From an uncultured virus (IMG/VR IMGVR_UViG_3300045978_000081) (lineage: Duplodnaviria > Heunggongvirae > Uroviricota > Caudoviricetes), in IMG/VR virus record IMGVR_UViG_3300045978_000081: a stretch of 20,000 bases of DNA; one strand, written 5' to 3'. Below, in pieces: positions 387 to 19,640 of this stretch (positions are counted from its first letter, which is position 1; each line of letters begins with the position of its first letter). A program made the position numbers and the translations under genes. The notes under the pieces are model-generated. The model saw only the letters and a list, made by a program, of their open reading frames with translations. It had not been told where the DNA came from and searched no databases.

Positions 387-433
387 TGCCTCGCAAACGT
401 AGTGCAAAACCAACTGACCAGGACTTCCTATGA
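386..433 (+). pseudogene. 15-codon mini-ORF MPRKRSAKPTDQDFL, a truncated duplicate of the N-terminus of 872..1408
   Basis: ATG at 386 overlaps the upstream TAA (TAATG). TGA at 431-433 overlaps the HNH start (ATGA). First 11 aa are identical to ORF 872. Confidence 0.85.
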
Positions 434-894
434 CTGAGAAGCGATTATTTCTCTTTCTGAAAAAAGTGAGTATCAATAAACTTACTGAGTGCTGGGAGTG
501 GACGGGAGCAACAAATGGAACTGGATATCCATTACTGTGGGATAATAGTTCTGGGAAATCCAGGTTGCATTATGCTCATAGACTATCCTATGAACACTAC
601 GTTGGAGAAATAACTGCTAATAATCAGGTAGATCATATCTGCTCAGTTAAACACTGCGTTAATCCAGATCATTTACAGCAGGTAAATGGAGCAGATAACC
701 AATCACGTGCATCTATTAGAAAGGAGAACTATAACAGCGCCAAAACACACTGCAAAAATGGTCACGAATTTACAGAGGAGAATATAATATACTCTAAATG
801 GTGCGGTCGAAATGGAGTACAACGCAAGTGCCGAAAGTGTCGAAAGGAAATGTTAACAAGGAATAAGAGTAATGCCACGGAAGAGAAGTGCTAA
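430..894 (+). CDS. HNH homing endonuclease with C-terminal Cys/His zinc-binding region
   Basis: CWEWTGA..GY, AHRLSYE, VDHICSVKHCVNPDHL..N, KTHCKNGHEF, RKCRKC. Confidence 0.92.
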   Translation: MTEKRLFLFLKKVSINKLTECWEWTGATNGTGYPLLWDNSSGKSRLHYAHRLSYEHYVGEITANNQVDHICSVKHCVNPDHLQQVNGADNQSRASIRKENYNSAKTHCKNGHEFTEENIIYSKWCGRNGVQRKCRKCRKEMLTRNKSNATEEKC

Positions 895-1460: not shown

Positions 1461-1682
1461 ATGCGACGCATAACCTTTGAGGTAACTGATGAACAGTATT
1501 GTAAGCTGAAGGATCATCTAGAGTACGGGCTAATGAAACGCTTCTTTGGTGCACTCGTAGACGACACAGTCGTCATGCTAGATGAGTTTGGTGACTTGTT
1601 TATAATAGCGGTGCTATCAAAGCGGGTGAGTTACCGGCAGATAATGGAGGATAAAAATGCTTTGGTTAAAAGTCAACCGTAA
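1461..1682 (+). CDS. Small protein (73 aa), possible ribbon-helix-helix DNA-binding protein
   Basis: AAGGAG at 1445-1450 favours ATG 1461 over the TTG at 1416. MRRITFEVTDEQYCKLK has an alternating beta-strand followed by a helix, as in RHH proteins. Confidence 0.55.
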   Translation: MRRITFEVTDEQYCKLKDHLEYGLMKRFFGALVDDTVVMLDEFGDLFIIAVLSKRVSYRQIMEDKNALVKSQP

Positions 1683-1887
1683 CGCACAACCGAAGCACAA
1701 CGTGCGCTGCCTGCCACCAGCTGCTCTCTGTACTACCAGCGCGGTCGTTTTTCTTCCGAAGGGTGGCGCCTTTTCCCTGCGCGAAGGGAGTGTTTGTCAA
1801 GGCACTGCCTCCAGCGAAGCGGCCTTGACAAGCAAACGACCGAAGTGCTATAATCACTAGCCACCTTGAGGAAAGGAACGAGCTGTA
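1660..1887 (+). repeat. Structured intergenic element, copy 1
   Basis: GGTT-AAAAGTC-AACC 1664-1678; CTCTCTGTACTACC; outer stem GGGTGGC/GCCACCT; inner stem TTGTCAAGG/CCTTGACAA; tip GCGAAGC 1814-1820. Confidence 0.8.
1825..1854 (+). promoter_or_regulatory. Consensus sigma70-type promoter (TTGACA-18-TATAAT, extended -10 TG) upstream of the ParB-MTase/polymerase genes
   Basis: TTGACA 1825-1830, TGC-TATAAT with TATAAT at 1849-1854. Confidence 0.8.
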
Positions 1888-1890
1888 ATT

Positions 1891-2100
1891 ATGGCGAACA
1901 TAGATGACCTATCCATTCCAAGCCTCGAATCTCAAGGCTTGCAATTAATTCTCACCATACGTGAGCGTAGACGATTCACGCCTGAGAAAGTACGCGAGAA
2001 GAAACTCCCGTCAGAAGCTATGCTCAATAAACTGAGCGATAAACAGCTCGCTGATCTATACTACACTCTAGCAGCCAAGATGCAAAAGGAGTTACTGTGA
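1891..2100 (+). CDS. Hypothetical protein (69 aa)
   Basis: ORF whose stop overlaps the next start (GTGA). No family recognised. Confidence 0.7.
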   Translation: MANIDDLSIPSLESQGLQLILTIRERRRFTPEKVREKKLPSEAMLNKLSDKQLADLYYTLAAKMQKELL

Positions 2101-3437
2101 AACTAGGAATCCTGCGTGTTGTTCCGATGTCTCAAATTGAAGTTGATCTAGATGCACGTGGGCGTCAGGCTTATGGTATTATACCTGAACTTGCAGCGTC
2201 CATACAGAAGCATGGACTAATTCACCCCATTGCAGTGTACTCAGTAAATGGTGAGCCACCATATAAACTTGTTGCTGGTGGGCGTCGATTTATGGCTTGC
2301 ACTGCACTGAAATGGGAAGAGATTAGTTGCCGCATATATGACACGCCAATGACCGAGCTGGAATTGAAGGCAGTTGAATTATTCGAGAATCTTGACCGTA
2401 TGAATTTGAACTATGATGAAGAAGTGAAGATGAAAGAGAAGCTTCATCTAACACTGGTTGAAATTCACGGTAGGAAAATAGCAAAGACTGCAGATGCACC
2501 TGGACACTCAATACGTGATACGGCACGAACACTTGGTGTTAGTCATGCTACAGTCATACAGGATATGAAACTCGCTGAAGCAATGCGCATTCTGCCTGAA
2601 CTTGAATTGGATAAGGAGAAAAATAAGTCAGCTGCCATGAAAAAGCTGACGCGATTTGCGAATGTCATCAGCAATAAAATGGCTGTGTCTGAAGCTAAGA
2701 AAGACGCCGTCCTTTCAGGCAGAATGACAAGCCCGGATGATCCACTCGCAGCCTACATAGTAGGAGATTTCTTCGAGAATAAACTCGCACCTAATCAGTT
2801 CAATTTTATAGAATGCGATCCGCCGTATGGAATTGATCTACCAGAGCAGCGAGCTGATGGTGAAACTGATTTCAGTTTGCAGCATGATTATAAGGAAATT
2901 TCTGGCCCGGATTATTTAATGTTCTTGAATAAGCTGCTCGAAGAATGCTACAAACTAGCGGCAGAGAATGCCTACATTATCCTCTGGTGCGGCCCGCAGC
3001 ATTTGAATAGGGCACTGGACGCAATGAAGCGTGCAAAGTTCTCTACGGTTCATATACCTGGAATTTGGAAGAAAGGTGAGAGTGCTGGTCAGGCAATGGG
3101 CATGAGAACGAACCTTGGAAATGCGTACGAGATGTTTGTGTACGGGCGTAAAGGTAATGCAGAGTTACGCAAGCAAGGCCGCTCAAATATATTCGACTTT
3201 AATGGAGTGCCATCATCGCAGCGCATCCATCCTACTGAAAGGCCAAGGGCGCTAATGAAGGAACTCATTGATACCTTTGCTTGGCCCGGGTCAAATATAC
3301 TAGTTCCATTCGCAGGAAGTGGAGTTACAATAGTCACGGCATTTGAACAGGGACATAAAGCCGTTGGCTACGATCTCAGTCAGAATTTCTACAATGCGTA
3401 CGTGAAGCGTTTAGTTGAGGAGGTAACGGCTAAATGA
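2097..3437 (+). CDS. ParB/Srx-like N-terminal domain + HTH fused to an N6A/N4C DNA methyltransferase (beta class)
   Basis: GLIHPIAV..LVAGGRRF..ENLDR (ParB-N); SIRDTARTLGVSHATV (HTH); DPPY (motif IV) before HPTERP and PFAGSG (motif I). Confidence 0.9.
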   Translation: MKLGILRVVPMSQIEVDLDARGRQAYGIIPELAASIQKHGLIHPIAVYSVNGEPPYKLVAGGRRFMACTALKWEEISCRIYDTPMTELELKAVELFENLDRMNLNYDEEVKMKEKLHLTLVEIHGRKIAKTADAPGHSIRDTARTLGVSHATVIQDMKLAEAMRILPELELDKEKNKSAAMKKLTRFANVISNKMAVSEAKKDAVLSGRMTSPDDPLAAYIVGDFFENKLAPNQFNFIECDPPYGIDLPEQRADGETDFSLQHDYKEISGPDYLMFLNKLLEECYKLAAENAYIILWCGPQHLNRALDAMKRAKFSTVHIPGIWKKGESAGQAMGMRTNLGNAYEMFVYGRKGNAELRKQGRSNIFDFNGVPSSQRIHPTERPRALMKELIDTFAWPGSNILVPFAGSGVTIVTAFEQGHKAVGYDLSQNFYNAYVKRLVEEVTAK

Positions 3438-3646
3438 TAGATGCTGATAGAACACTTATATTACTTAGACAAATAGAATCTCTAAGTAGAGAAGGCAAAT
3501 TAGTAATTGCTGGATCACTGATAGATGCACTATATCCGAAGCCTATTCCCGAAATGGATTTAGATATAGTATTTGCGTGCAAGCAAAAAGTGCTTAGTTG
3601 GATAGCACAACAACTAGGAGATAATGATGCCTTACGTTCCAGCTGA
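3434..3646 (+). CDS. Hypothetical protein (70 aa)
   Basis: Start overlaps the previous stop, GGAGG upstream, 3' end overlaps the polymerase start. Confidence 0.7.
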   Translation: MIDADRTLILLRQIESLSREGKLVIAGSLIDALYPKPIPEMDLDIVFACKQKVLSWIAQQLGDNDALRSS

Positions 3647-6110
3647 TGGATCACTCAACTCCAAAATAGCTATTGTTGGCGAGCAGCCGGCAAAGTACGA
3701 AGCTAGATACAGCAAGCCATTTACTGGCCCCGCCGGTCGTAATCTAAATGAGTGTTTGCAGAATGCTCGCATACCACGAGGTGGTTGTTATCTGACGAAC
3801 GTAGTGAAACAAACTGAGTTTGAATTAGAACGCTATTTTAATTTGAAGGGTAAGAATCCTGCCGCGACGCAGCTAGGAAAGGCGTGTATAGAGGAGCTAC
3901 GTGATGAGCTTATGGATTGTCGCGCTAACATCATTGTGCCTCTTGGCAATACTGCATTGTTCGCTCTATGTGATAGAACTGGCATTAATAGTTGGCGTGG
4001 AAGTGTGCTTGAGTCTACGCTTTTACCAGGGCGCAAAGTCATTCCTACATTGCATCCAGCTGTGTATACAGATGAGAAGGTACTACAGAACCCAGCTGCA
4101 TACCTGGCTAAATATCTAATTACTATAGACCTTAAGAAAGTCCGTAGTGAGTCTGAATTTCCGGAGATTCGCTTAGCGGACAGAAGATTGAGGATCCAGC
4201 CAAACTTCTATGAAGCGCTTACATGGCTGGAGCGTTGTAAGGTACGTGCTGAGGATGGTGGAATTGTATACTATGATATAGAGTTAACACCAAAGACCCA
4301 AGAACTGAGTTGTATTAGCTTCTGCACATCGCCCGATGATGTAATGTGCATACCATTTGTAGATGCAAACGGAGACTATTTTACTGCTGAGCAAGAATAC
4401 AAGCTAATGTTGAGCATTGAAGAATTGCTCAGCAATTCCAGCTGGATGAAAGGGGGACAGAATATTATCTTCGATTCGCACTTTCTATTACGCAAGTATG
4501 GTATACGCACTCGTAATATTGTTGCTGACACTATGGTAGCTCAGCATATACTCTACCCAGATTTCGGAGGTAAAACGTACCGTGGAAAATCACTTGAATT
4601 TATTACGTCAATGTGGACGGATATACCTTACTACAAACGTGACGGAAAGTTGTGGCTCACTGGCATAGGCGACTACGCCAAGGGCTGGAATTATAACTGC
4701 CTAGATAGCGCAGTATGCGCTGATGCGTTTCCTAAACAGCTCACCGAGCTCGAAGAGCGTGGTAATTACGACTCGTATGAGCGACAAATAAAACTCATTG
4801 GACCTCTGAGTTATATGATGGAGCGTGGAATTAAAGTGGATAAAGAAGGAATGGAGCGAGCGTCCAGAGATGCTTTGTTAGAAGCTGATGAATTAACGCA
4901 ACAAACGTTCGAGGTTATGGGCAGCTCGGCCTTTAACCTAAATAGCCCGCAGCAAGTAGCGGAATACTTTTATGGTAAGTGTGGAGTTACACCTTATTTA
5001 AATAAGAATGGCAAGCCTACTACAGATGAGGAGGCATTAACACGCATAGCGAATAAGGGATTTAAAGAAGCTAGTATGATCCTCGAGATTCGACGTTTAC
5101 GTAAGAAGGCATCAACATTTCTAAATGTCGAGAACGTTGACGATGATGGTAGGATGCGATGTAGCTACAATCCAGTAGGTACACGATTCTCGCGGATTAG
5201 TTCGAGTGCAAATATATTCGGTACTGGTGGAAACTTACAAAATGTACCACATGATGTACTGAGTTATTACGTCGCAGATTCTGGATACGTAATTTATTCA
5301 CTTGATATGTCGCAGATTGAGGCGCGCATTGTCGCGTACGTTGGAAACATCACTCAAATGAAGGAAGTATATGAACAAGGTCTGGATATACACAGACAAA
5401 CGGGAGCACTCATTTTTAATAAGCCTTACGATGAAGTCAGTAACGCACCTGGATCGAGTACCATTGGTAATGGAACTTACAGTGAGCGCGATTGGGCAAA
5501 GCGTGCCAACCATGCTTTCAATTACGGTTTTGGTTACAAGTCTTTCAGCTTGCTATATGAAATCCCTGAAAAAGAAGCTAAGTTCATTTATGATAGATAC
5601 CATTCTGCTTATCCAGGACTTAGAGGTGGATACTGGAAGTATGTAGAAGGGTTGCTTAAGGCAACCCGTACGCTCACTAATCTATTTGGTAGAAGAATTA
5701 CGTTCCTAGGAAAGCTTGATGATAAATTGCTCAATGAAGCTTACTCGTGTATACCGCAAGGAACATGTGGAGACCTAGTAAATGAGTGGGGATTGAACTT
5801 CGTTTATTATAACTCAGATGCGTTGTTCCAACGCGTGGAGCTGTTAACTCAAGTACATGATTCAATTAGTATACAAGTGCCGCTGGATTTGCCACTGATA
5901 GATCACGCACGTATCTTGACTGCGATTAAGCGTTCTCTAGAACAGCCGCTGGAGTTCGGCAGAACCCAGTTTGTCGTGCCTGTTGATCTGGTAGTAAATA
6001 GTTGTCTCAACAAGAACAAAGGTATAGAGCTGAAAGGCACGAAGTTTAGTAATGATCCTCGTGTACTGGAAGTGTATTTACAGGACGCTATTCTAACACT
6101 GGGAGTTTAA
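3624..6110 (+). CDS. polA: Family A DNA polymerase with N-terminal uracil-DNA glycosylase family 4-like domain and 3'-5' exonuclease
   Basis: UDG-like: IVGEQP, PFTGPAG, YLTNVVK, VPLGNTA, TLHPA. Exo: YDIE, QNIIFD, YNCLD. Pol: FNLNSPQQ, RISSS..NLQN, DMSQIEAR (motif A), RDWAKRANHAFNYG (B), QVHDS (C). Confidence 0.95.
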   Translation: MMPYVPADGSLNSKIAIVGEQPAKYEARYSKPFTGPAGRNLNECLQNARIPRGGCYLTNVVKQTEFELERYFNLKGKNPAATQLGKACIEELRDELMDCRANIIVPLGNTALFALCDRTGINSWRGSVLESTLLPGRKVIPTLHPAVYTDEKVLQNPAAYLAKYLITIDLKKVRSESEFPEIRLADRRLRIQPNFYEALTWLERCKVRAEDGGIVYYDIELTPKTQELSCISFCTSPDDVMCIPFVDANGDYFTAEQEYKLMLSIEELLSNSSWMKGGQNIIFDSHFLLRKYGIRTRNIVADTMVAQHILYPDFGGKTYRGKSLEFITSMWTDIPYYKRDGKLWLTGIGDYAKGWNYNCLDSAVCADAFPKQLTELEERGNYDSYERQIKLIGPLSYMMERGIKVDKEGMERASRDALLEADELTQQTFEVMGSSAFNLNSPQQVAEYFYGKCGVTPYLNKNGKPTTDEEALTRIANKGFKEASMILEIRRLRKKASTFLNVENVDDDGRMRCSYNPVGTRFSRISSSANIFGTGGNLQNVPHDVLSYYVADSGYVIYSLDMSQIEARIVAYVGNITQMKEVYEQGLDIHRQTGALIFNKPYDEVSNAPGSSTIGNGTYSERDWAKRANHAFNYGFGYKSFSLLYEIPEKEAKFIYDRYHSAYPGLRGGYWKYVEGLLKATRTLTNLFGRRITFLGKLDDKLLNEAYSCIPQGTCGDLVNEWGLNFVYYNSDALFQRVELLTQVHDSISIQVPLDLPLIDHARILTAIKRSLEQPLEFGRTQFVVPVDLVVNSCLNKNKGIELKGTKFSNDPRVLEVYLQDAILTLGV

Positions 6111-6113
6111 GAA

Positions 6114-6599
6114 ATGACAAACAAGGAATTTGCTAGATTCTGTAAATACTTCGTTGTAATGACAGACGACGCAGAACAAAGTCATAGAGTATGCTGGTTA
6201 TGGATAGGTGCTTTAACGGAGGGATATGGATTTCTTAAAGTCAAAGGTAAGAATATAAGAGCACACCGACTTATGTATGAGCACGTATATGGTGAGATAA
6301 AGGAAGATTACGTAATACATCATAAGTGTCACAACAAGCGTTGTGTAAGCCCGTTTCATCTAGAAATGGTAACACGCGAACATAACGTTAGTGAAGCCCA
6401 AACTAAGACACATTGTAAGCGTGGACATGAGCTATCCGATGATAACGTACATATGTATAGAGACAAATACGGAAAGTTTAGAAGATACTGCAAGAAATGC
6501 GCTTCAAATTCAGCACGTAATAGATATGCGGCTCGTACTTTAGTTGATAAATTAACGGATGAAGATATAGCTAAATTGATGAGTCTAAAAGGAGAATAA
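6114..6599 (+). CDS. HNH homing endonuclease, paralogous to 430..894
   Basis: CWLWIGA..GYG, AHRLMYE, IHHKCHNKRCVSPFHL..N, KTHCKRGHEL, RYCKKC. Confidence 0.92.
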   Translation: MTNKEFARFCKYFVVMTDDAEQSHRVCWLWIGALTEGYGFLKVKGKNIRAHRLMYEHVYGEIKEDYVIHHKCHNKRCVSPFHLEMVTREHNVSEAQTKTHCKRGHELSDDNVHMYRDKYGKFRRYCKKCASNSARNRYAARTLVDKLTDEDIAKLMSLKGE

Positions 6600-6601
6600 G
6601 A

Positions 6602-7801
6602 ATGGCGAGACACTTGAGTAATTTCCTGGATGCTTATCTCTACTTTACCGAAGAAACTGAGCCATGCGAGCTTTACCGCAAGTGGGTAGGAGTCAGCATT
6701 ATTGCTGCAGCATTGCAGCGGAAATGTTACTTGCATTGGGGCTCGCAGATTTGGTATCCTAATCTGTACATAGTATTAACCGGTCCTCCAGGTGAGCCGC
6801 GTAAGGGTACAGCTATGGCTTCTGGCTACAGCATTCTGAGACCGCTCAATCTAAAGCTATCTGCAGACCGACTGTCACCTGAGTATTTTATAAAAGAACT
6901 CAGTGCCTCACTCACTACAACGCAGCTGGGCAATGGTAAGTTTATAAATCACTGCAGTATGACAATCTTCAGCAGTGAGTTGACAGTATTTCTGGGATAT
7001 AAGAACTCGCAGTTCTTAGCTGATTTAACTGACTTGTATGATTGTAAGGATCCATGGGCGTACAGGACTAAAAATAGTGGGCACTTTGAAGTAACAGGTG
7101 CATGGCTAAATATGTTGGCTGCAACCACACCTGAGCAAATACAAGCAGCATTGCCAATTGAAGCAATAGGAGGTGGCTTTGCAAGTCGAGTGTTATTTAT
7201 ATTCGCTGATAGGAGAGGTAAAACTGTCCCTATGCCAATAGAGAACGAAGAACTTAAGGCGAAATTAAGAAGCGATTTAGAAGAGATTTCGTTGTTAGCT
7301 GGTCCATTTGTTGCTACAGAAGATTACATACTCACTCGCACTGAGTGGTATTTGAACGAGTCTCAGGAGAACCAAATAATTCAGGATCCAAGATTCGCTG
7401 CGTATTATAGCAGGAAAGCGAGCACTGCAACAAAGCTCAGTATGATACTCTGCGCGTCACGTAGCGACGATATGAAGCTGAGAGGTGAGGATTTCGTTAA
7501 CGCAATCGATATGCTTAATGAAGCTGAGATACAAATGCCACGTGCATTAAGTGGCGTTGGTAGGAGTGATTATGCTGAGCTGCTTCCAATGGTAATGGAA
7601 GAAATACTGAGACATAAAGAGGTGACTATAAGGTATTTGATGAACCGATTTTCGCACGATACGACGTACTTCCATTTGATTAAGATGGTAGAAACACTTG
7701 AGATTATGGGCGTTTTGAGTTACGCTCCATTAACTAAGAAGATATATGCGAATCCTAACTTCGGGAATAGTTCGAGTGGAGAAAGTGCGGTTGTCAATTG
7801 A
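6602..7801 (+). CDS. DUF3987/YfjI-like P-loop ATPase, putative replicative helicase, no primase domain
   Basis: YPNLYIVLTGPPGEPRKGT (Walker A-like), SSELTVFL, LTDLYD, GGGFASR; next to the polymerase. Confidence 0.75.
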   Translation: MARHLSNFLDAYLYFTEETEPCELYRKWVGVSIIAAALQRKCYLHWGSQIWYPNLYIVLTGPPGEPRKGTAMASGYSILRPLNLKLSADRLSPEYFIKELSASLTTTQLGNGKFINHCSMTIFSSELTVFLGYKNSQFLADLTDLYDCKDPWAYRTKNSGHFEVTGAWLNMLAATTPEQIQAALPIEAIGGGFASRVLFIFADRRGKTVPMPIENEELKAKLRSDLEEISLLAGPFVATEDYILTRTEWYLNESQENQIIQDPRFAAYYSRKASTATKLSMILCASRSDDMKLRGEDFVNAIDMLNEAEIQMPRALSGVGRSDYAELLPMVMEEILRHKEVTIRYLMNRFSHDTTYFHLIKMVETLEIMGVLSYAPLTKKIYANPNFGNSSSGESAVVN

Positions 7802-8012
7802 GGCCGGAAGACTCCGCTGGACCGCTGCTGATTATAGCACTTACGTTGCCTAATGCTGTCAAGGACCCGCTACGCTGGGGATCCTTGACAGCGGCAACTC
7901 CAGTGCAGAGAGTAGACGCGGTCCGGCGGAAAAATCTGCCGGCCTGGAAGTATGGAGAGTTGCTGGCAGCCGCACTCCCGTTGGTCGTGAGTATGGTTAA
8001 AATCTAACCATA
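7801..8012 (-). repeat. Structured intergenic element, copy 2, at the convergence of the two arms
   Basis: TATGGTTA-AAATC-TAACCATA 7992-8012; stems AGGCCGG/CCGGCCT, GGACCGC/GCGGTCC, GCTGTCAAGGA/TCCTTGACAGC; minus-strand TTGACA (7857-7862) and TATAAT (7831-7836); tip GCGTAGC (7869-7875, minus). Confidence 0.8.
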
Positions 8013-8014
8013 AA

Positions 8015-11000
8015 CTATCTTCTCTCACGTCTCTCTGAGCGTTCACGTCTCGCTCCTCTTGTTGGCTCCTGCGAATACCAGCCCATCAAACTGTCGTAAA
8101 CATTCTCACCGCGCTTTTGTGCTCTAGTAAACTTACTTATTTGACGGGTGCCAGGTACACCTAAAAGTGTAGCTGTTGGTTCCCACCACGGCGGGCTGAG
8201 TGGATCATTTCTGTAGGCGCGTGCAGCATCTCGTGCTGTTTCTATTGCAGGCCCGGCTATTCCTTTACCGTACCTCATGCCACCTATAATAGGCAGTCTC
8301 TCTATTTGTCCTACCGCCAAATCAAGCGCAAGTTGTGGTAGTGAATGTCTAGCCTGCATTCCTTTCCGCACATCTTCAACAGGATCAGGTAACGCTGGTT
8401 GAATGTGCAGCAGTTTGTACAACTCGTTAATGATCTGGGTGATGATGAGGAATCCAATTACGTTGCGCATAAATCTCATATTACTGCGTGGTGCTCCAGG
8501 CTCTTCCCAACTGCCAGGACCACTGGCTACTCCACCTGGAGGTATCTGCCCACCACCTCCACCACCAATCTTACCTTTAGTGAGCACTTCGTCTCGCAGG
8601 AAATTGAAGTCACTAATCAAGAACGTCTGGAATTGCGTGACAAGTTTACCTAATGGGTTACGCTGTATGCCTGCAAGATCGCCTGGCATCGTACTTCCTT
8701 GCGTACGCACCACAAGATCGTCTGCGTAGCGTACAGCATCCTTATGATTGTATCCGACCTTCGGACTCGTGGCGAACTTGTAGCCGGCGTTCCACGTAAC
8801 AAGTGCAGCTTCCATATCCAGCAATTCAATCAGCTTGAATCCTGGCCGGCCAACCATTTGCTGCAGTTCAGCTAAGTTACCTCTGCCTAAGGCACGAAAT
8901 AATTCTCCTGGTCGTCTACCTACGAATGCACTAGTAACTTCATTGTAGGCATCAATGAACTTACGTGAGCTGAGTATCTCACTGTTACGTAATGCGAAAT
9001 CCTTCTTCTTGCCTAGTGGTAAATCGGCTAACATCTCGAATGCTGATCCTAGTGTCTTTGGTATACCAAGTGTTTGGCTAGTATTTACCAATGTAGACAG
9101 CTGGATTGTACCTGATCTTATAAGCCCAGATAGTGTAGCGTACGCAACGTTCTTGTTGACAGTATTTAGTATCATCCGCTGCGTTGCAGTGAATTGCTTG
9201 TTTGTACCGGTTGCAATATAGTCAGTCCAGTTACGTAGCTCTTCATACAGGCCTGGTTTATTGTCCTTAAGTTGCCACGTCTCTTTACCAGTAACAGGAT
9301 CAGGTAAGTTAGTTTCAATAAGCTCATGCATCTTCGCAATGAATGGACTCATGTGAATGTCCTTCAGCGCCGATTGAGCATAAGTATCAAGTATTTTTAG
9401 TGCGTTCATTTCGGCCGTGTAGAATGCATGCTTGCGTACAATGTACGGGAAGTTTGTTGCTCGATGTTTGATGTACTTTGCGTGCACAGAATCGGAAGTA
9501 TCGCGGGCAAGATCTACTTTAATACCAAGCGCATTCAGCACGTTTATTGTGCGCGCGAAGGTTTGGTAGTCATCCACTCGTGCAAGTGGCTCACGTCCAG
9601 TTGCAGCACGTACTTCATTTACTCGATTATATAAGTAAGCATAAACACCATCAAGATTTGCCTGCAATCGCCGCTCAGCAGAAGTAAGCGGCTGAGGTGT
9701 GACCTTATTATATGTAAGTATTCGTTGCCCGTCTCCACCTTGACGCGCATAACCATTAGCGCCAATATTCTCTAGTGATTTTGAACTGAAGCCACGACCT
9801 AATTCTTCCATATCTGCGTGTAAAGTATTCAGCTCGGCATTCAGGTTCTTTTGTGCAGTGCGATACGCATAGTAGAGAAATTCTGTACCTGCTGCTTTGT
9901 GCTGGCGCAATGGTAGCTTTAAGTTCCACTCACCACCACCCGGCTTAATGTCACGTGCATTCTGAATGCCTCGCACCTCACTCTGCCACAAAGGTACGTA
10001 CGTATTGCCACTTGCAACGCGCTGCTTAACAACTCTATCTCCTGGAATTACGTTCTCAGGATCGAAGCGCATATTACGCGGATTCGTTGAGTTTGGAGGT
10101 TCAGGATTATTGATACCTTCTAGGTACCGCTCAAACATTGCTACATCTTCAGGACGTGCACCAAACAGAAATTCTCGTACGTTCTTTCCTGCCTTACGCA
10201 TATCAGCTTGCAATCGCTGAGCGGCCATACGTGCTTCACGAGACCAGTTACCTCCTATTGCACCTTCCTCACCAAGCATAGTATTCACATCATTCAGTAT
10301 ATCTATGAACGCCCTACGCTCAGACGTGTCAATGCCAGCTCTTGCTGATTCGCGCATAGCTTTGTAGTGAGGTATCAAATCAGCCGGCAATTTATCTGTA
10401 ATATCCACGCCTTGCTCTATAGCACGTAACATTTCTTCTATTTGTTCCGGACCAATAGGTGATGTTTTACTCTCAACGTATGCACCTGCAGCGTCCTTAG
10501 AAATCGGGACAGCTCGTAGATCGTCACCACTGTTAAGACGAGCATCAGTCCTGACAACGTCCTTAGGAACGAGTTCATAGTTCCTGCCCTTCATTACGTA
10601 TAAATCAAGGTCATTCTCTGCAGCAACACGAGTTGCTTCACGTATCAGTTCTTGGCCAGTAAACTCATGTGCACGCTCGATTGGTAGACCAGTAAAATCA
10701 GCTTGTGCTTGTAAGGAACGTTTTAATACCTGCCCTAATTCAGGGCTCGTTCTTCCTCGCTGTATCTCAAGCTCAATATTTGCAAGTGATGTACGGGCGT
10801 TCATTCCTCTAGTATCAACGAAAATAGCATCAGGCCTGCCTTCTATAGTACGTACTTGTATTGGTGCTGATGATATAAGCTCTGTGTACTTAAAGGGTAA
10901 TATAGATGCCTTAGCACTGGGTTCTAAATTAGTAACGGATTTTATTTCAGTGAAACCAACATTCGTGACTACAGGACGGGTATATGCATAGTAAGCTGTA

Positions 11001-13552
11001 TCCGCCGTACGTCTTGCTACATCTTCAGGCAGTCCCATACTGATAAGAGTTTGTCTCAGTTGTGATGGTCGCACTCCTTTACTAAAAGCATCCATGACGT
11101 CGGCCAGATTCATGCCTATTTGCTGCAGTGTTTCTTGAATTTCTTCTTTAAATGACTCTACATTCTTACGCACGGCGCGTTCTTCAAAAACGCTTTGTTC
11201 TGCTGCGGCACGTGATTCTGGAGTACTTGTCTCATATATAGGTCTACGAGTGGGCCTATTTATAAGAGGCTCTGTATCTGGCGCTTTCACTACCTTACGT
11301 TTACGTTTAGGCTTCTCAATGACAGGAGATGTATCTATTACTGGTTCTGCAGGTGCAGGTATTTCTACTTCAGTTCCTGCCGGTGCGTTTTCTAGTACAG
11401 CTTCAGTTGCTGCTTGCTGAACAGCTGGCTTATTGACGGTATAATAACGAGTGTAATTACCTTGCTTTACTTGAGTTATACTACCTTCATTCAGAAGATT
11501 TTGAATTGCTTCATTAACTTCACTACGTGCAAACCCCACTCTATTTACTATAGCTTGTATTGTAGCCCCACCTTCCCGAGATAGAAAATCCCTCACTGCT
11601 CCACTAACATCTGAAACTGGCATTTCAGATAGCTCAGATAAACTGCTCTCCACAATTCCTCTTTCAGACTTCGCAGCGCGTACTTTTTTAAGTTGTGGTA
11701 TTAACTCCTGAATTGTTTCCTCATCTACACCAAGCTGCCGTAATCCACGCTCTACGCTTTTCGCGTCAGTATTAAGAGCTTCACGTTTCAAGTTTGCTAA
11801 CGACGTTTTACGATCAGCTGGACTTGTTTCCTCATTTTGAATTGCTTCTATTGCCGCGAACGCAGGCCCTCTATATTCAGTGCGAGTAGGAGTTATTACT
11901 TCTGGAGCCGTAGGCGATACCGCAGCTACTGCTGGAGTCTCGGGTGAAACTGGTGCTGGTACAGTTTCAGGAGCAACAGTAGCTGCAGCCTCAACACGTG
12001 GTGTTTCGATAGGTGCAATTTCACGAGTCGGTCTTGGTGCCTCAGGCGTAACAGGAGCTAAAGCTGTCTCACCTCGCACTACAACTTCAGGCTGCACTGG
12101 CCGCTCAGCAGTCATAGTTGGTGCTGCACGCTGAGGTTCAGGTGCGCGTTGAGCTTGAGGCTCAGCTGACCTTGGTGCTTCAGGTGTAGGAGCAGCAGGT
12201 CTTGCAGCTTCAGGCGTTGGTGTTGGGCGCGTAGGCTCAGCAGGAGCTCTAGGTGTACCTTGTGGTTTAGGTACGCGGCCTAAGCGCTCTCGTAAATCCG
12301 TCATGATACTGCCTCTATTTGGATCAGCTGCCCATTCATCCGTTACACGATCTAGCTCTGATTTGTACGCACGCAATTCAGCTGGATCATATACTATATC
12401 TGCAGCAGCTCCACCACCAGCTGGCCCTTCATCCGGCGGCTTAGGTCCTCGTGGTGGCATGCCGACTTCACGATCAGCTTCATCTCTAAACTTTCCACGA
12501 GCTTCTTCAAGCGCGTTATTTAGTCGAGGATTTTTTGATGCTGCATTCGCAAGATCTTCTGCAGCTGCTGCGGCTTGCGCGTCAGTTGTAGCACGTGACA
12601 TACGAGTTTTGTATTCAGCAATCTTTGAGCGTATTTCTGGAGCAGCTTTGCGTACGCCCTGATCTAGCTTGTAGAATAGATAAAGTTCAGTGGCAAAGCT
12701 AAGCACTCGAGCTGTATCCTCGTTAAGTACGCCTGTTGCCACAAGTGCGCGACCAGGTAGTTCAGCTACATCCTTAATTAAACCGGTTACAGTGCCTACA
12801 GCTTTATTTACGTTCTTTGCAATATCTGAGCGTGGTTCAGGAGTTAGTGACGTAATGCGCTGATCCATTCGGTTGAATATATCACGGTAATGAGTTTTAC
12901 TTTCGGGCCCACCGGCCATTGGTCCGCCACGTGCAACACGTGCAAGTTGAGTATTCAAAATATCGCTAACTGCAGTTGCAGCACCAAATGCAAATGCTCC
13001 AGCACCGGCGAGTACATTACCACCAGCTTCGGCAATATCGCGCACAAAATTCGTGGATCGTTGCAGCGTACCATATAATCCAGGAGAGTATTGTCGCGTC
13101 GGCGTTGCTCCTGGTGCTCCAGGCTGAAGGTCACGTCTGCTAGTATAACGCTGTGACTCTGGAGCTTGAGTAGGAACTGTGCGAATTCCACTAAAACTTC
13201 CAGTGCCGGTATATTCGCGTGTTGTATCTGGTACTAATTTTTCAGCTACCGATCCAATAGCTGAACCAACATCACTTGCTATTTTGCCAGGATCTATACT
13301 AGGTAGATAGCCAGAAATTCCTGTGCCTGATGGTTCTGCAGGCGGCACGTATTGAGGCGGCAATTGACCAGGGCTGAGCCTCTGCTCAGCGGGTAAGCCG
13401 CTATTATAGTTATTTAATAATGCTTCATTCAAGTCCGGCTTCTTAGGAGCAAGCGGCGTTTTGCCTATTCCTAAGCGTCCAAGTAATTCTTCATTTTCTG
13501 GCTCACCTTGAAGAAGGTAGCGTTCTACGTCAATAGGTGCGACTGTTGACAT
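8015..13552 (-). CDS. Very large virion-associated protein (1845 aa), putative internal/ejection (DNA transfer) protein
   Basis: Last gene of the structural arm; GAGGA RBS; Ala/Gly-rich N-terminus, Pro-rich linker, C-terminal helical region with hydrophobic segment (RTQGS..NPLGKLVTQFQTF..VIGFLII). Function inferred from size and position. Confidence 0.65.
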   Translation of the reverse strand: MSTVAPIDVERYLLQGEPENEELLGRLGIGKTPLAPKKPDLNEALLNNYNSGLPAEQRLSPGQLPPQYVPPAEPSGTGISGYLPSIDPGKIASDVGSAIGSVAEKLVPDTTREYTGTGSFSGIRTVPTQAPESQRYTSRRDLQPGAPGATPTRQYSPGLYGTLQRSTNFVRDIAEAGGNVLAGAGAFAFGAATAVSDILNTQLARVARGGPMAGGPESKTHYRDIFNRMDQRITSLTPEPRSDIAKNVNKAVGTVTGLIKDVAELPGRALVATGVLNEDTARVLSFATELYLFYKLDQGVRKAAPEIRSKIAEYKTRMSRATTDAQAAAAAEDLANAASKNPRLNNALEEARGKFRDEADREVGMPPRGPKPPDEGPAGGGAAADIVYDPAELRAYKSELDRVTDEWAADPNRGSIMTDLRERLGRVPKPQGTPRAPAEPTRPTPTPEAARPAAPTPEAPRSAEPQAQRAPEPQRAAPTMTAERPVQPEVVVRGETALAPVTPEAPRPTREIAPIETPRVEAAATVAPETVPAPVSPETPAVAAVSPTAPEVITPTRTEYRGPAFAAIEAIQNEETSPADRKTSLANLKREALNTDAKSVERGLRQLGVDEETIQELIPQLKKVRAAKSERGIVESSLSELSEMPVSDVSGAVRDFLSREGGATIQAIVNRVGFARSEVNEAIQNLLNEGSITQVKQGNYTRYYTVNKPAVQQAATEAVLENAPAGTEVEIPAPAEPVIDTSPVIEKPKRKRKVVKAPDTEPLINRPTRRPIYETSTPESRAAAEQSVFEERAVRKNVESFKEEIQETLQQIGMNLADVMDAFSKGVRPSQLRQTLISMGLPEDVARRTADTAYYAYTRPVVTNVGFTEIKSVTNLEPSAKASILPFKYTELISSAPIQVRTIEGRPDAIFVDTRGMNARTSLANIELEIQRGRTSPELGQVLKRSLQAQADFTGLPIERAHEFTGQELIREATRVAAENDLDLYVMKGRNYELVPKDVVRTDARLNSGDDLRAVPISKDAAGAYVESKTSPIGPEQIEEMLRAIEQGVDITDKLPADLIPHYKAMRESARAGIDTSERRAFIDILNDVNTMLGEEGAIGGNWSREARMAAQRLQADMRKAGKNVREFLFGARPEDVAMFERYLEGINNPEPPNSTNPRNMRFDPENVIPGDRVVKQRVASGNTYVPLWQSEVRGIQNARDIKPGGGEWNLKLPLRQHKAAGTEFLYYAYRTAQKNLNAELNTLHADMEELGRGFSSKSLENIGANGYARQGGDGQRILTYNKVTPQPLTSAERRLQANLDGVYAYLYNRVNEVRAATGREPLARVDDYQTFARTINVLNALGIKVDLARDTSDSVHAKYIKHRATNFPYIVRKHAFYTAEMNALKILDTYAQSALKDIHMSPFIAKMHELIETNLPDPVTGKETWQLKDNKPGLYEELRNWTDYIATGTNKQFTATQRMILNTVNKNVAYATLSGLIRSGTIQLSTLVNTSQTLGIPKTLGSAFEMLADLPLGKKKDFALRNSEILSSRKFIDAYNEVTSAFVGRRPGELFRALGRGNLAELQQMVGRPGFKLIELLDMEAALVTWNAGYKFATSPKVGYNHKDAVRYADDLVVRTQGSTMPGDLAGIQRNPLGKLVTQFQTFLISDFNFLRDEVLTKGKIGGGGGGQIPPGGVASGPGSWEEPGAPRSNMRFMRNVIGFLIITQIINELYKLLHIQPALPDPVEDVRKGMQARHSLPQLALDLAVGQIERLPIIGGMRYGKGIAGPAIETARDAARAYRNDPLSPPWWEPTATLLGVPGTRQISKFTRAQKRGENVYDSLMGWYSQEPTRGARRERSERRERR

Positions 13553-13561
13553 TTACGTTTC

Positions 13562-13796
13562 CTCTGCTAGCGGCATTTCTCCCTGCAGGTGCAAGAGAGT
13601 GTAGTTCCTTTGTGGAGAACCTGCTAGAGAAAAATGCGGGGCCATTTTTCTCTTGCAGAACCTCCAGTCGTCACAACACGGGAATTGCCCCTGCTGGGAA
13701 AATGCCATCGCGCCGGTAGCACAAGAGAGATCAGCGGCACTAGGGCTCCCGTTGGTCGCAGCTTCATCTCCAGCTATGGTTAAAATCTAACCGTAA
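13562..13796 (-). repeat. Structured intergenic element, copy 3 (most diverged hairpin)
   Basis: TATGGTTAAAATCTAACC 13775-13792 and CTCCCGTTGGTCG 13746-13758, both identical to copy 2; stems GGCATTT/AAATGCC, AGAGAAAAATG/CATTTTTCTCT; minus-strand TACACT at 13598-13603. Confidence 0.75.
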
Positions 13797-13801
13797 CAAT
13801 C

Positions 13802-14764
13802 TTACTCTTTGGGCCTGAGTTTCCAGGGTATCGGCTGCTTTAAGCTTGGATAAAATACTTGCTCAAGGTATTGTTGCACGTTCATTGCGCCACTAGGGTA
13901 ATTCTGAGCTGCGTCATAAACCTCTTGGGCCGTATAGCGATGACCATCTACAGTAGGCAAATCTATCTTCTTCATTCGAGTACCTGAATAGATGCGGCCA
14001 GGATTATCCTCAAAGATATACACGTACGGCTGTTTGCTTGTCGCATGAAACAGCTCAGCTTCAGGTGCTAATTCACTCTCATCGTACGAGTTCTGTAGTG
14101 CATAGCCACCAGGTCTCTTCGAGCGTAGATTCTGTTCTGCATCTGTTGCTACTTTCATCTCAGTGCGAGCATCCGTGCGCGCTTTAGCTATTTTCTCTGC
14201 ACGCTCTTTCTCGAGCTGCATCATCTTCTGTATATTCTCGTTACGCTCTTGAGCAAGTGTCATTCCTTTGGCTGAGAACTCCTGACCACCGATCTTCAGC
14301 TTTACGTATTCATCATTCTGTTTATCTAGCAGTGCAGCCTCTCTCGGATACAGTTGACGGATGCGCTCAGCATTGGCATTGCTGGCATTAACAGCTGCCA
14401 TACTTTGCTCAATATTAGCTCGTATGTTCTGCTTCTCTAAACCGAGCAGCTCAGTAACGCGGTTTGATTGTGCTTGATACAGGCCTGTCTGTGCACGCTC
14501 CTGTGCAACGCGTTCTGGCAACAGTGTTTCGGTACTGATTCGCTGAGCACGACTCGCACCAGCTGCTTCACGTGACTGGTCAATATCCGCAAGCATCTTA
14601 GCGGCAATGTGAGGCTCTTCTGCACGTAACCGTGCTGCCTGCGCTTTATTCAAATCACCTGAAGTTTCACGGTACGCAATCTCACTTTGTACATTACGTG
14701 CCTGTATAATGTCCTGCACGCTGCGTAGTCGCAGTGCTTCTCGTTCTGTGTCGAGTCGGCCCAT
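13802..14764 (-). CDS. Helical/coiled-coil virion protein, probably made as the C-terminal part of a -1 frameshift fusion with 14824..15384
   Basis: Ala/Gln/Glu/Arg-rich ORF; the frame stays open upstream of ATG 14764 into the end of the previous gene; weak RBS. Confidence 0.7.
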   Translation of the reverse strand: MGRLDTEREALRLRSVQDIIQARNVQSEIAYRETSGDLNKAQAARLRAEEPHIAAKMLADIDQSREAAGASRAQRISTETLLPERVAQERAQTGLYQAQSNRVTELLGLEKQNIRANIEQSMAAVNASNANAERIRQLYPREAALLDKQNDEYVKLKIGGQEFSAKGMTLAQERNENIQKMMQLEKERAEKIAKARTDARTEMKVATDAEQNLRSKRPGGYALQNSYDESELAPEAELFHATSKQPYVYIFEDNPGRIYSGTRMKKIDLPTVDGHRYTAQEVYDAAQNYPSGAMNVQQYLEQVFYPSLKQPIPWKLRPKE

Positions 14765-14784
14765 AGCTGCAACCTGTTCTGGAT

Positions 14785-14836
14785 TAAGCCCCGCAAGACT
14801 TCCACTTTCAAATCCTCCGGGGCTTAGTAGAAAGGG
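14785..14836 (-). promoter_or_regulatory. Putative programmed -1 ribosomal frameshift signal (C CCU UUC + stem-loop)
   Basis: Heptamer at 14836-14830 in XXXYYYZ phase; stem TAAGCCCCG/CGGGGCTTA (14818-14826 and 14785-14793) extended by AGGATTT/AAGTCTT. Confidence 0.75.
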
Positions 14837-15384
14837 GCAATATCTAGTATGCTGGGATCACGTCTAGCTGCAGCAGTTCTTATTGGTGCTGGTGCATTAG
14901 TTACGGGAACTGGAGCCGTAGTAGCTGGAGTAATCACGGGTGCTGTCTGTGTACGTGCAGGTGGCTGAGCTGGTGCTACGTTAGTCGGTCTGGTTGCTGC
15001 AATGTCACGAAGCGTATTTGAGAATGCACCGTACTCCGGCGTGCTCGTAATATTTCGTGGCTCAGGCAAGTTGAGGTCGAATGTGTACGAGCCAGATGGC
15101 GTTGCCTTAACGCTGTTCAGACCAGGACGGTCTGGCTTCGTGATGCCACCGTGCAAGTCAATAAGCTGTTTAATTTGTGCTGATCGCGCCGCGTCGCGTT
15201 TCTCGATGGCAGATTGAGCGGCTTTACTGCTAATCATATTTGCAGCGGCGGTACCAATTACTCCACCTGCACCCTCAGGGTCCATTTGCCTACCCATGTT
15301 CGCGAGCAGTAACTGGAAGTTGGGATCACTTAACATACCGCTAAAACTCCACGGTTGCTGTGTGGCTGCTGAACCTTCTGCCAT
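14824..15384 (-). CDS. Putative small ejection/internal virion protein (186 aa)
   Basis: AAAGGA RBS; Gly/Ala-rich N-terminus, Pro/Thr/Ala-rich C-terminus; upstream of the large virion protein. Confidence 0.65.
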   Translation of the reverse strand: MAEGSAATQQPWSFSGMLSDPNFQLLLANMGRQMDPEGAGGVIGTAAANMISSKAAQSAIEKRDAARSAQIKQLIDLHGGITKPDRPGLNSVKATPSGSYTFDLNLPEPRNITSTPEYGAFSNTLRDIAATRPTNVAPAQPPARTQTAPVITPATTAPVPVTNAPAPIRTAAARRDPSILDIAPFY

Positions 15385-15393
15385 GATAAATTC

Positions 15394-15607
15394 CTTTGGT
15401 TAAAGTTTAACCACAACGCACCGACGCGCAGTATAGCGCGCCACTGACTCTCTTGGTACTTCCCACCGCCGCAGCCTTTCCGATCGGGCCACCCATCCCT
15501 TCCACAGCGTAGGGTAGCGCTTGTCAAGCATCCCAGCGGAGCGGATGCTTTACAAGCAAGCGTACCGAAGCGACAATCCCACGGGTGGCACGAGAGGAGC
15601 TAAGGCG
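15394..15607 (+). repeat. Structured intergenic element, copy 4 (antisense to flanking genes)
   Basis: GGTT-AAAGTTT-AACC 15398-15412; CTCTCTTGGTACTTCC; GCCACCC/GGGTGGC; GCTTGTCAAGCATCC/GGATGCTTTACAAGC; tip GCGGAGC 15536-15542; TTTACA-17-GACAAT 15549-15577. Confidence 0.8.
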
Positions 15608-18614: not shown

Positions 18615-19474
18615 ACGCGCGCTCCCTCAAGCACTTTAATACGTGCCGACAATTCTTGTAGTGCACCTACAAGCCACGGTACGAGTTTACTAAAATCAAC
18701 TTGCTGTGGCTTGATACTGCCATCCTCATTGAGCGCATCAGGTTCGCCTGTAACAGCTTCTGGAACAACTTGCTGTAATTCATGCGCGGCAAATCCATGC
18801 CCTTCTTCACCGGTAGATTTCCATAAAAAGCGAATTGGATTGAGCGATATTATACGCTCCAGGGCGCCGGTGAGTGGGGCGATGTCGGATTTGAGGCGGG
18901 CATCACTGGAGGTGGCGTAGGTGGTGCTCGTGGCATTGGCGATAATGTAACCTACTACTGCCGCAGCGGTATTGCGAAAGACAATGGACGAGTTGCCAGA
19001 CGTGTCGTCGCCGTAATTCTGAATTATCAAGCCATGACTGGTAGGCTTGTCAAACAGCATAAATACCTTCGCATTATTGCTGACATCTGTGGTGCCAAGC
19101 ACAATGTTTCCCTGGATATAGTTTGCGGCGCTGCCCTGCATAAAGAGTTGCCAGCGACCGCTGCCCACCGAGAGATTCGAGTTAAACGCCGTCAGCGGAC
19201 TACCTGCCGTATCGCTGACAGTATGCTGCCGCGCGTTCACGTTTTGCTGGCCGGTGATGTCCCCGCTGGCGATGAGCGTATTCAACGTCGCACTCCCCCC
19301 CGTAATCGCCACCGCATTCGCATGCTGCTCGGCCATAGTGCCCAAGCCTAAATTATTACGTGCTGTCGCAGCTGTCGTTGCGCCAGTACCACCACCACTA
19401 ATACTCAGCGGCATACTTTGCCCGTTCCACAACGTCGCATTGAGCACACTTGTTGGATATACGTCAACAGCCAT
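18611..19474 (-). CDS. Tail fibre/spike protein with C-terminal peptidase S74 intramolecular chaperone (287 aa)
   Basis: Start reassigned to MAVDV (AGGAG RBS); GGTGATTAATARNNLGLG; SDARLKSDI..GFAAHELQQVVPEAV..VDFSKLVPWLVGALQEL. Confidence 0.9.
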   Translation of the reverse strand: MAVDVYPTSVLNATLWNGQSMPLSISGGGTGATTAATARNNLGLGTMAEQHANAVAITGGSATLNTLIASGDITGQQNVNARQHTVSDTAGSPLTAFNSNLSVGSGRWQLFMQGSAANYIQGNIVLGTTDVSNNAKVFMLFDKPTSHGLIIQNYGDDTSGNSSIVFRNTAAAVVGYIIANATSTTYATSSDARLKSDIAPLTGALERIISLNPIRFLWKSTGEEGHGFAAHELQQVVPEAVTGEPDALNEDGSIKPQQVDFSKLVPWLVGALQELSARIKVLEGARV

Positions 19475-19640
19475 CTTTGCACTCCTGCTGCACTTTCTTG
19501 AGTGCGGTAATTCCACCATCAATTCTGTGCAGCGTGATTTCGAGATACGCAACACGCTCACGTAAACGCAGCAATTCATTTTCACCAGCAGTAAATTCGT
19601 CCTGGAGACGGCTAATTTCTTGTGTAATTAATTCAAGCAT
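19464..19640 (-). CDS. Small coiled-coil protein (58 aa, not in the ORF track), possible fibre assembly factor
   Basis: Hand-translated MLELITQEISRLQDEFTAGENELLRLRERVAYLEITLHRIDGGITALKKVQQECKDGC; GAGGA RBS; overlaps both neighbours. Confidence 0.75.
   Translation of the reverse strand: MLELITQEISRLQDEFTAGENELLRLRERVAYLEITLHRIDGGITALKKVQQECKDGC

Follow-up and report, generated by a model that had tools for sequence, protein, structure and literature searches.

RNase III hairpins lie near promoters in T7-like phages, and the repetitive extragenic palindromic (REP) and bacterial interspersed mosaic element (BIME) sequences of enterobacteria stabilise mRNA irrespective of their orientation. T4-type phages carry promoter-early stem-loop elements (PeSLs), which are reported to be intergenic sequences combining a strong sigma70-like promoter with a stem-loop that may overlap the -35 or the -10; they end at the Shine-Dalgarno sequence and start codon of the next gene and mediate modular shuffling by recombination (PMC2839356). 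Frpo, as two reports describe it, folds on the transferred single strand, reconstitutes the promoter boxes, drives the downstream leading genes and is off once the DNA is duplex (PMC9849209, PMC11541004; citing Masai and Arai 1997). For the early hairpin promoters of phage N4, a review states that extrusion requires a G:C closing pair and a loop with a 5' G and a 3' A, that the cruciforms form at sub-physiological superhelical density, and that an E. coli promoter lost its activity when an N4-type hairpin was inserted between its boxes and regained it on inhibition of gyrase (PMC4496689). The subject of the present analysis is a 20,000-nt stretch of DNA from an uncultured virus (IMG/VR IMGVR_UViG_3300045978_000081; hereafter the window), which corresponds to bases 747-20746 (minus strand) of one 46,817-bp phage contig, and in particular its intergenic fold-back elements. 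These belong to a diverged family of promoter-bearing rods under selection for pairing, for which we tentatively prefer an action of the rod in RNA.

Rods under selection for base pairing

The sequence-only reading of the window had described four fold-back elements, all of which were recovered (copies c1-c4) with the following positions and parts:

1660..1887 (+), copy c1: sense; palindrome 1664-1678; rod 1743-1883; the next gene starts at 1891
1795-1800, 1825-1830 and 1849-1854 (+), promoter parts of c1: TGTCAA, -35 TTGACA and -10 TATAAT; 18-nt spacer
7801..8012 (-), copy c2: palindrome 8009-7995; rod 7944-7802; convergent junction after the 1845-aa gene
7862-7857 and 7836-7831 (-), promoter parts of c2: -35 TTGACA and -10 TATAAT (TGc-TATAAT); 20-nt spacer
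13562..13796 (-), copy c3: sense; palindrome 13792-13778; rod 13709-13570; -10-like TACACT 13603-13598; no good -35
15394..15607 (+), copy c4: palindrome 15398-15412; rod 15467-15607; antisense to both flanking minus-strand genes
15549-15554 and 15572-15577 (+), promoter parts of c4: -35 TTTACA and -10 GACAAT; 17-nt spacer

As had also been remarked, c2 and c4 point into neighbouring genes, the promoter of c2 being directed into the 3' end of the DUF3987 gene (6602-7801). An orthologous antisense copy of c4, G3a, is present in the related record G003; the two are 57% identical and both keep the rod and the promoter-like hexamers. Copy c3 lies upstream of the 1845-aa gene (start 13552). Small open reading frames overlapping the elements (for example 1657-1860) were dismissed, because indels between copies break the frame.

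The four window copies align mutually at 63% mean column identity and, together with the compensatory changes described below, form one diverged family of fold-back rods, in agreement with the earlier proposal. Its size had been underestimated at four, since the genome holds nine copies: an nhmmer profile of the window copies retrieved five more from the rest of the genome (E 8e-16 to 1.2e-7), along with lone palindromes, and a covariance model of the rod with 138 positions (R1) recovered all nine. The same model found 6, 2, 1 and 2 copies in the related records G001-G004, giving 20 copies in total, on which the following description is based.

Read 5' to 3', the cassette is a unit of ~230 nt that opens with the GGTTA-N5-TAACC palindrome of 15 bp. 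Next come a small, variable hairpin, which frequently has CAACG at or close to its loop, and, at the foot of the rod, a conserved motif resembling ACTTCC-AGGCCG; the ~140-nt rod itself completes the unit. In 19 of the 20 copies the palindrome lies 69-113 nt before the rod. All 20 copies share the same rod, in which a basal stem (TTTYCC... paired with ...GGRAAAA) is followed by a 3x3 purine-rich internal loop or an A-A mismatch and then by a second stem. Above this come the -10 region, open as a bubble in some of the copies, then a third stem with a GNA/GNA-type loop, and at the top a nearly invariant TGTCAAG/CTTGACA stem with a small apical hairpin. The 3' arm of the rod carries in succession the -35, the spacer, the -10, a C-rich discriminator and a T-purine start. 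Most copies have a minimum-energy fold in which a TGTCAA-type complement pairs with the -35, as the sequence-only reading had it. The -10 is fully unpaired in 8/20 copies, has five of its six bases unpaired in two more, and is partly paired in 10/20; the earlier placing of the -10 in a bubble therefore stands for c1, c2 and c4, where the minimum-energy fold leaves it fully unpaired, and not for c3, where it is partly paired.

The whole elements c1-c4 folded as RNA gave z = -2.45, -7.97, -4.64 and -3.55, and their rods folded as DNA gave z = -2.89, -8.12, -6.43 and -3.89; the complementary strands of the rods folded nearly as well as DNA (z = -2.23, -7.98, -6.13 and -3.57). Covariation was assessed on a model-based alignment (A5), which was used instead of MAFFT-only alignments that gave a poor consensus structure; 10 reverse-strand rows were removed and 20 rows kept, and the consensus comprised the 37 pairs found in at least eight individual minimum-energy folds. 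Canonical combinations filled 82% of the cells over these pairs, compared with 63% in column shuffles (0/500 reached the observed value) and 41-45% with slid partners (a control that leaves out offsets +2 and +3), the percentage paired being inflated because the structure was derived from the same sequences. Independent of that inflation is the excess of two-sided over one-sided changes: two-sided changes occurred at 33 of the 37 pairs, against 20.9 +/- 1.8 in shuffles and 15-18 with slid partners, and nine pairwise comparisons of copies gave a total of 34 two-sided and two one-sided changes. Because of this excess, the rod is a maintained base-paired structure under selection for pairing, and the earlier observation that the stems differ in sequence and still pair is borne out. 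A strain comparison of the contigs L001 and L003 gave 98 differences, none of them within the elements (5.8 expected), but the differences are clustered in patches, which makes the comparison uninformative.

Promoter features and turnover of the cassettes

Promoter-like hexamers are conserved across the family. The -35 reads TTGACA in 15 copies, TTTACA in three and TTGACT in one, with none in c3. The -10 hexamers comprise TATAAT (four copies), CATAAT (three), GATAAT, GACAAT, CACAAT, TACACT (three) and seven others of the form TAnnCT or TAnnTT; the search, 17-21 nt downstream, fixed the second base as A and the sixth as T, so that these two bases alone are no evidence. In 19/20 copies a C follows the -10 hexamer, and then a T-purine step. 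Spacers between the two boxes measure 17 nt in five copies, 18 in nine, 19 in two, 20 in three and 21 in one, and an extended -10 (TGn-TATAAT) is present in three of the four longest-spacer copies. A Shine-Dalgarno sequence and start codon lie on the same strand within 35 nt downstream of 14/20 rods. No gene start lies ahead of the other copies (c2, c4, c6, G1c, G1e and G3a). Within the virion operon, c4 and its orthologue G3a run antisense, and c6 points at the 3' end of an operon directed leftward, the coding strand of which was fixed by a GIY-YIG gene. Because of the hexamers, the spacers and the placement before gene starts, the best reading of most copies is that they work as duplex promoters of the gene that follows, and their predicted identity as promoters is well supported.

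The early region of the genome (23.5-31.5 kb; L020:3500-11500) is densely occupied on both strands by perfect sigma70 consensus promoters, with three 12-of-12 sites that also have the TG, several 11-of-12 sites, and 27 promoter-like sites in total against 14.5 +/- 3.6 in shuffles. These consensus sites make it clear that the phage depends on host-type promoters. The early promoters have AT-rich upstream DNA and no rod, whereas the rods precede replication and virion genes. No T-run was found 3' of any rod, and a scan of the early region for terminators picked up no rod. One divergent pair of early promoters, at L020 7857 (-) and 7952 (+), has a single palindrome-like site in common.

The palindrome is enriched in the window, with four matches at no more than one mismatch, where 0.41 were expected and none of 200 shuffles reached four. 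The four related full-length genomes G000-G003 (45.5-46.8 kb) hold 11, 11, 13 and 10 palindromes, and the 11 in the genome of this phage are all intergenic, at the following positions:

G000: 5335, 6955, 12738, 19069, 24164, 25792, 26164, 31053, 34569, 37296 and 43697, palindromes genome-wide

Lone palindromes occur 10-25 nt before start codons and at one convergent junction, and degenerate ones lie ~45-60 bp upstream of early consensus promoters; the exact palindrome was not found in the loci L010-L018. Since it also stands alone between genes and near early promoters, the palindrome is probably an operator or an RNA hairpin in its own right.

Copy number differs among phages whose PolA proteins are 77-82% identical, with 9, 6, 2 and 1 copies in G000-G003. 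In G003, the site of c2 has the palindrome alone, so that filled and palindrome-only states exist at one junction, and the sites of c1 and c3 have the palindrome followed by a different structured repeat of ~230 nt. Copy c9, which is sense, and G1e, which is antisense in the replication module of G001, are 75% identical at non-syntenic loci and in opposite orientation. These differences at the c1, c2 and c3 sites and the orientations of c9 and G1e indicate that cassette content differs between relatives and that orientation is not fixed.

Other structured repeats were noted in the relatives. One, to which the repeat after the palindrome at the c1 and c3 sites of G003 belongs, is a second, unrelated family of structured intergenic repeats of ~230 nt, with a common CTCATAGTCATAGC...TTGAG core; in addition, L011, from a phage with 53% PolA identity, has long intergenic rods of its own (-106 and -85 kcal/mol), in which TTGACA/TGTCAA-type arms lie near the base in the opposite order, with no evident -10:

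L009:7880-8200 (+), second repeat family
L009:18880-19143 (-), second repeat family
L009:820-1100 (+), second repeat family
L011:18880-19120 (-) and L011:3400-3600 (-), rods of L011, with flanks GGGGnCCCC and GTAATTT

Beyond the close relatives, the rod model found no copies in G005 and the loci L010-L018. A pattern scan of IMG/VR for a -35 inverted repeat with a -10 returned at least 120 stretches and added no family members among the matches listed; of the 80 loci with DNA, one gave a marginal match to the model (E 0.0088). A metagenome scan with PolA yielded 17 loci, mostly the same phages, and the model, applied to 12 of the 17, found rods only in L165 (two). A blastn search with c2 against the phage collection gave no match. 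Rfam scans of the window and the rest of the genome at E <= 1 returned only unrelated weak matches (mir-4081, snR85, PrrB/RsmZ), and neither 6S nor any other Rfam family matched the nine genome copies on either strand, which answers the check that the sequence-only reading had suggested.

Explanations for the rod

G-U pairs make up only ~5% of rod pairs and both strands fold, with an asymmetry that depends on context. Of the 14 sense copies, 13 have the more stable fold on the promoter strand, with a margin of 1.2-13.2 kcal/mol over the complement, and the remaining one (c8) has it on the complement, by 0.8 kcal/mol; in the four antisense copies the promoter-versus-complement differences are -1.0, +0.6, +1.0 and +3.2. 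The sense and antisense classes differ in this respect (Mann-Whitney p = 0.0013; p = 0.0029 without the orthologue G3a), and the ratio of G-U pairs on the promoter strand to those on the complement is 36:26 in sense and 4:11 in antisense copies (Fisher p = 0.043). Which strand folds better thus depends on the local mRNA sense and not on the promoter strand, and this favours read-through RNA. RNA-library contigs, which come from four runs, are of low depth and unstranded and may include DNA carry-over, span c1 (1612-2005 and 1630-1920) and extend from the upstream gene through c3 (13575-14023); uncovered parts, depth and the ends of contigs within rods (1751, 13575 and 15567) were not counted as evidence.

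The explanation we tentatively place first is that the elements are modular intergenic promoter and stem-loop cassettes in a clade of uncultivated soil phages, with the rod acting in RNA. In duplex DNA, the cassette would be an ordinary internal promoter for the gene directly downstream and would boost expression within the long replication and virion operons. The rod would form in read-through polycistronic RNA in either orientation and could serve between cistrons in the processing or stabilisation of the transcript, as an RNase III site or a 3'-protective hairpin. A nut/boxA-like antitermination signal is a conceivable reading of the CT-rich motif. The cassettes may spread or be exchanged by recombination at the intergenic palindromes, sometimes landing inverted, in which case the promoter would fire antisense. 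If the rods were only RNA punctuation, they would be a well-documented new example of phage promoters and RNA-processing signals joined in exchangeable cassettes, which would aid the annotation of uncultivated phages.

Several points weigh against this explanation. Six of the 20 copies face no gene start, and yet c4 and G3a keep the rod and the hexamers. An RNA role does not explain the C-GNA-G apex found on the promoter strand in 16/20 rods, and the scarcity of G-U pairs and the nearly equal folding of both strands also fit a DNA cruciform. The -10 bubble persists, even though evolving an RNA rod paired throughout would be simple, and RNase III cleavage and the transcript starts and ends are predicted only. 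The antisense class of the asymmetry comparison has only four copies, from about three independent lineages, and, should forks travel in the direction of transcription, the mRNA-sense strand would double as the lagging-strand template, so that the asymmetry cannot separate RNA from that single-stranded DNA.

A possible but more doubtful explanation is that the fold acts in DNA, with the rod, or its near-perfect apical part with the C-GNA-G loop, extruding from supercoiled or transiently single-stranded DNA. On the one hand, the -35 could thereby be sequestered, so that the promoter would be switched by superhelicity or replication. On the other hand, and rather unlikely, the folded strand could be a ready-made open promoter under supercoiling or at a fork, with a duplex -35, an unpaired -10 and a downstream duplex, in which host polymerase would use the 5' arm as template and transcribe opposite to the duplex-mode promoter; the RNA, made toward the palindrome, could prime the complementary strand or transcribe in sense the operons downstream of the inverted c4, c6 and G1e. 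The geometry does resemble an open promoter complex, as the sequence-only reading had noted. An N-C-GNA-G-N' mini-hairpin occurs in the apical part of 16/20 rods, always on the promoter strand and never on the complementary strand (1.3 expected; at most 7 in 1000 shuffles), and the similar DNA z-scores of the two strands, the few G-U pairs, the -10 that is open or nearly open in half of the copies, the six copies facing no gene and the placement of the rods before replication and virion genes, with none at early promoters, are in keeping with a DNA fold. In the four long-spacer copies, moreover, the 5' arm from the -35 complement to the bubble measures 15 nt and the 3' arm 19-21 nt, the extra bases being bulged, so that folding would shorten the spacer. 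Set against this, 14/20 spacers are already 17-18 nt in linear DNA and three of the four longest-spacer copies have the extended -10; transcription in the folded mode would run antisense, away from the adjacent gene, in 14/20 copies; the fold asymmetry tracks mRNA sense; the -10 is partly paired in the other half of the copies; and only about two thirds of rod positions pair, which would make extrusion of a full cruciform costly. The sequence-only reading had put a single-strand promoter or priming origin foremost, in a phage lacking a primase. That ranking is not upheld, given the 14/20 copies directly upstream of a same-strand gene and the duplex-competent spacers, and the priming proposal itself is not specifically supported; similarity to Frpo or single-strand initiation (ssi) sites was not found either, as c2 had no blastn match (word 11, E <= 1) among 72,556 plasmid records. 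The supposed lack of a primase holds in so far as Pfam scans of replication and early proteins detected no Toprim, zinc-finger primase or primase-polymerase domain, and is weakened by the 399-aa DUF3987 protein, which matches PHROG 14296, labelled 'DNA primase' (E = 6.5e-61), a label of annotation and not a demonstrated activity. If the fold did act in DNA, the cassette would be a topology- or replication-sensing switch that could time middle and late genes, or supply RNA primers on the lagging-strand template of a phage without a recognisable primase domain; host-polymerase promoters would for the first time be seen in a phage to serve as cruciform or single-strand switches, tying gene timing or lagging-strand priming to DNA topology without a phage-encoded regulator.

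The turnover of the cassettes bears on a further explanation, which we consider improbable, namely that they are selfish fold-back repeats resembling miniature inverted-repeat transposable elements or REP sequences. The rod and palindrome would serve mobility through a hairpin-specific nuclease or recombinase or through template switching, and the embedded promoter would be retained as making insertions into operons harmless or useful. The unequal copy numbers in G000-G003, the two orientations, the filled and palindrome-only states of one junction, the similarity of c9 and G1e at non-syntenic sites, the near-constant association of rod and palindrome (19/20) and the five homing-type endonuclease genes of the genome are all consistent with such mobility. 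However, no transposase, HUH nuclease or integrase was recognised among the proteins scanned, no target-site duplication is visible at the c2 junction, and 14/20 copies are placed precisely before a gene start. The copies, 50-75% identical, are also old and still keep hexamers and pairing, which argues for selection for function in place. Very improbable, in our estimate, is that the rod RNA is a 6S-like decoy, which would imitate an open promoter and so tie up the sigma70 polymerase of the host late in infection. Its closing stem, central bubble, apical stem and length of ~140 nt fit that architecture, and the RNA-library contigs are compatible with read-through across c1 and c3; but there is the lack of a 6S match in Rfam, the fully open -10 bubble occurs in 8/20 copies only, the phage itself relies on sigma70-type promoters, and the exact DNA-type hexamers, the C-rich discriminator and the placement before genes fit a real promoter better. 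Whichever explanation applies, the family provides 20 naturally diverged hairpin-embedded promoters as material for testing sigma70 polymerase on structured promoters.

Genome setting and comparison with described systems

The window contains a plus-strand replication module, which encodes two HNH endonucleases, a ParB-methyltransferase fusion, a fusion of uracil-DNA glycosylase with PolA and the DUF3987 protein, and minus-strand virion genes that converge on it and encode the 1845-aa protein and BppU-like, beta-helix and S74-chaperone tail proteins. Megablast of the window against the phage collection gave no nucleotide-level match, and the top PolA relative there is that of Desulfofustis phage LS06-2018-MD01 (40.5%). 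IMG/VR holds identical contigs (L001-L003) and loci with PolA identities of 77-82% (L004-L009), 49-57% (L010-L016) and 44% (L017-L018), and the public runs containing the stretch are labelled soil metagenome. In the PolA fusion, a domain of the uracil-DNA-glycosylase superfamily stands N-terminal to the exonuclease and polymerase domains; in L004 and L005 the match to PolA is 3435 nt long, against 2484, which corresponds to an insertion of ~950 nt. Features of the genome outside the cassettes are:

window 3624-6110 (+), PolA with the fused N-terminal domain
L005:10001-13435, longer PolA match
window 430-894, homing-type endonuclease gene
window 6114-6599, homing-type endonuclease gene
L020:3729-4148 (-), homing-type endonuclease gene
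L020:7306-7605 (-), homing-type endonuclease gene
L020:8039-8407 (+), homing-type endonuclease gene
window 8015-13552 (-), 1845-aa protein
L020:10496-10987 (+), 163-aa protein directly upstream of the large terminase

The homing-type endonuclease genes comprise three of the HNH and two of the GIY-YIG type in 46.8 kb. Apart from weak winged-helix matches (residues 650-710), the 1845-aa protein has no Pfam family above threshold; it has no relative in PDB and a PHROG of unknown function, and its nearest Atlas language-model clusters are of 'large polyvalent protein' types; its candidacy as a virion RNA polymerase was dropped on these grounds. The 163-aa protein has weak matches to a LuxR/GerE-type helix-turn-helix and to a small-terminase PHROG, making it a candidate DNA-binding protein, and a link between it and the palindrome would be pure speculation. 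In the tail-fibre genes, one RNA-library contig (X19, depth 14.4) joins 18857 to 19874, omitting 1016 nt; the junction may reflect a strain variant or recombination between two S74-type fibre genes.

A keyword search of open-access text covering single-stranded and hairpin phage promoters, PeSLs and RNase III stem-loops retrieved no description of such rods, a search that would miss other wording. With 6S RNA, the rods have in common a central bubble that mimics an open promoter; they differ in the absence of an Rfam match and in carrying DNA-type consensus boxes in front of genes. RNase III hairpins of T7-like phages and REP/BIME palindromes are likewise intercistronic imperfect hairpins with internal loops in long operons, but they are shorter and do not have the promoter inside. 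The C-GNA-G type apex of 16/20 rods resembles the loops that favour extrusion of the N4 promoter hairpins. However, the N4 hairpins are small and read by a virion RNA polymerase, whereas no RNA polymerase was recognised among the scanned proteins of this phage and the boxes are of the sigma70 type. Like Frpo and the ssi sites, the rods are long stem-loops in several diverged copies, and they may likewise offer a -35 and a -10 to host RNA polymerase, the -35 being paired in most copies and the -10 fully unpaired in 8/20. In the present case, however, the adjacent gene lies in the duplex-mode direction in 14/20 copies and the spacers are 17-18 nt in 14/20, an arrangement that suggests activity in the duplex and entails no need for a single-stranded stage. 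We regard the elements as a new variant of the phage promoter and stem-loop cassette, with action of the rod in RNA tentatively preferred to the more doubtful action in DNA.

The PeSLs are the closest published analogue. Both are repeated intergenic units of a promoter and a stem-loop that run up to the Shine-Dalgarno sequence and start codon of the following gene, as do 14/20 copies here, and in both relatives differ at the cassettes, which here takes the form of the differing counts (9, 6, 2 and 1), a junction that is filled or palindrome-only, and alternative repeats. The PeSLs are ~100 bp long, have a short G/C-rich terminator-like stem-loop and lie in early hyperplastic regions. In the rods, by contrast, the entire promoter is inside a covarying structure of ~140 nt with a -10 bubble and a separate 15-bp palindrome, the location is in replication and virion modules, 6/20 copies are inverted or face no gene, and a terminator or attenuator would not be predicted from their 3' flanks, which have no T-run. 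There is no sequence relationship, and the phages belong to different groups; on the tentatively preferred reading, the rods are a larger analogue of the PeSLs.

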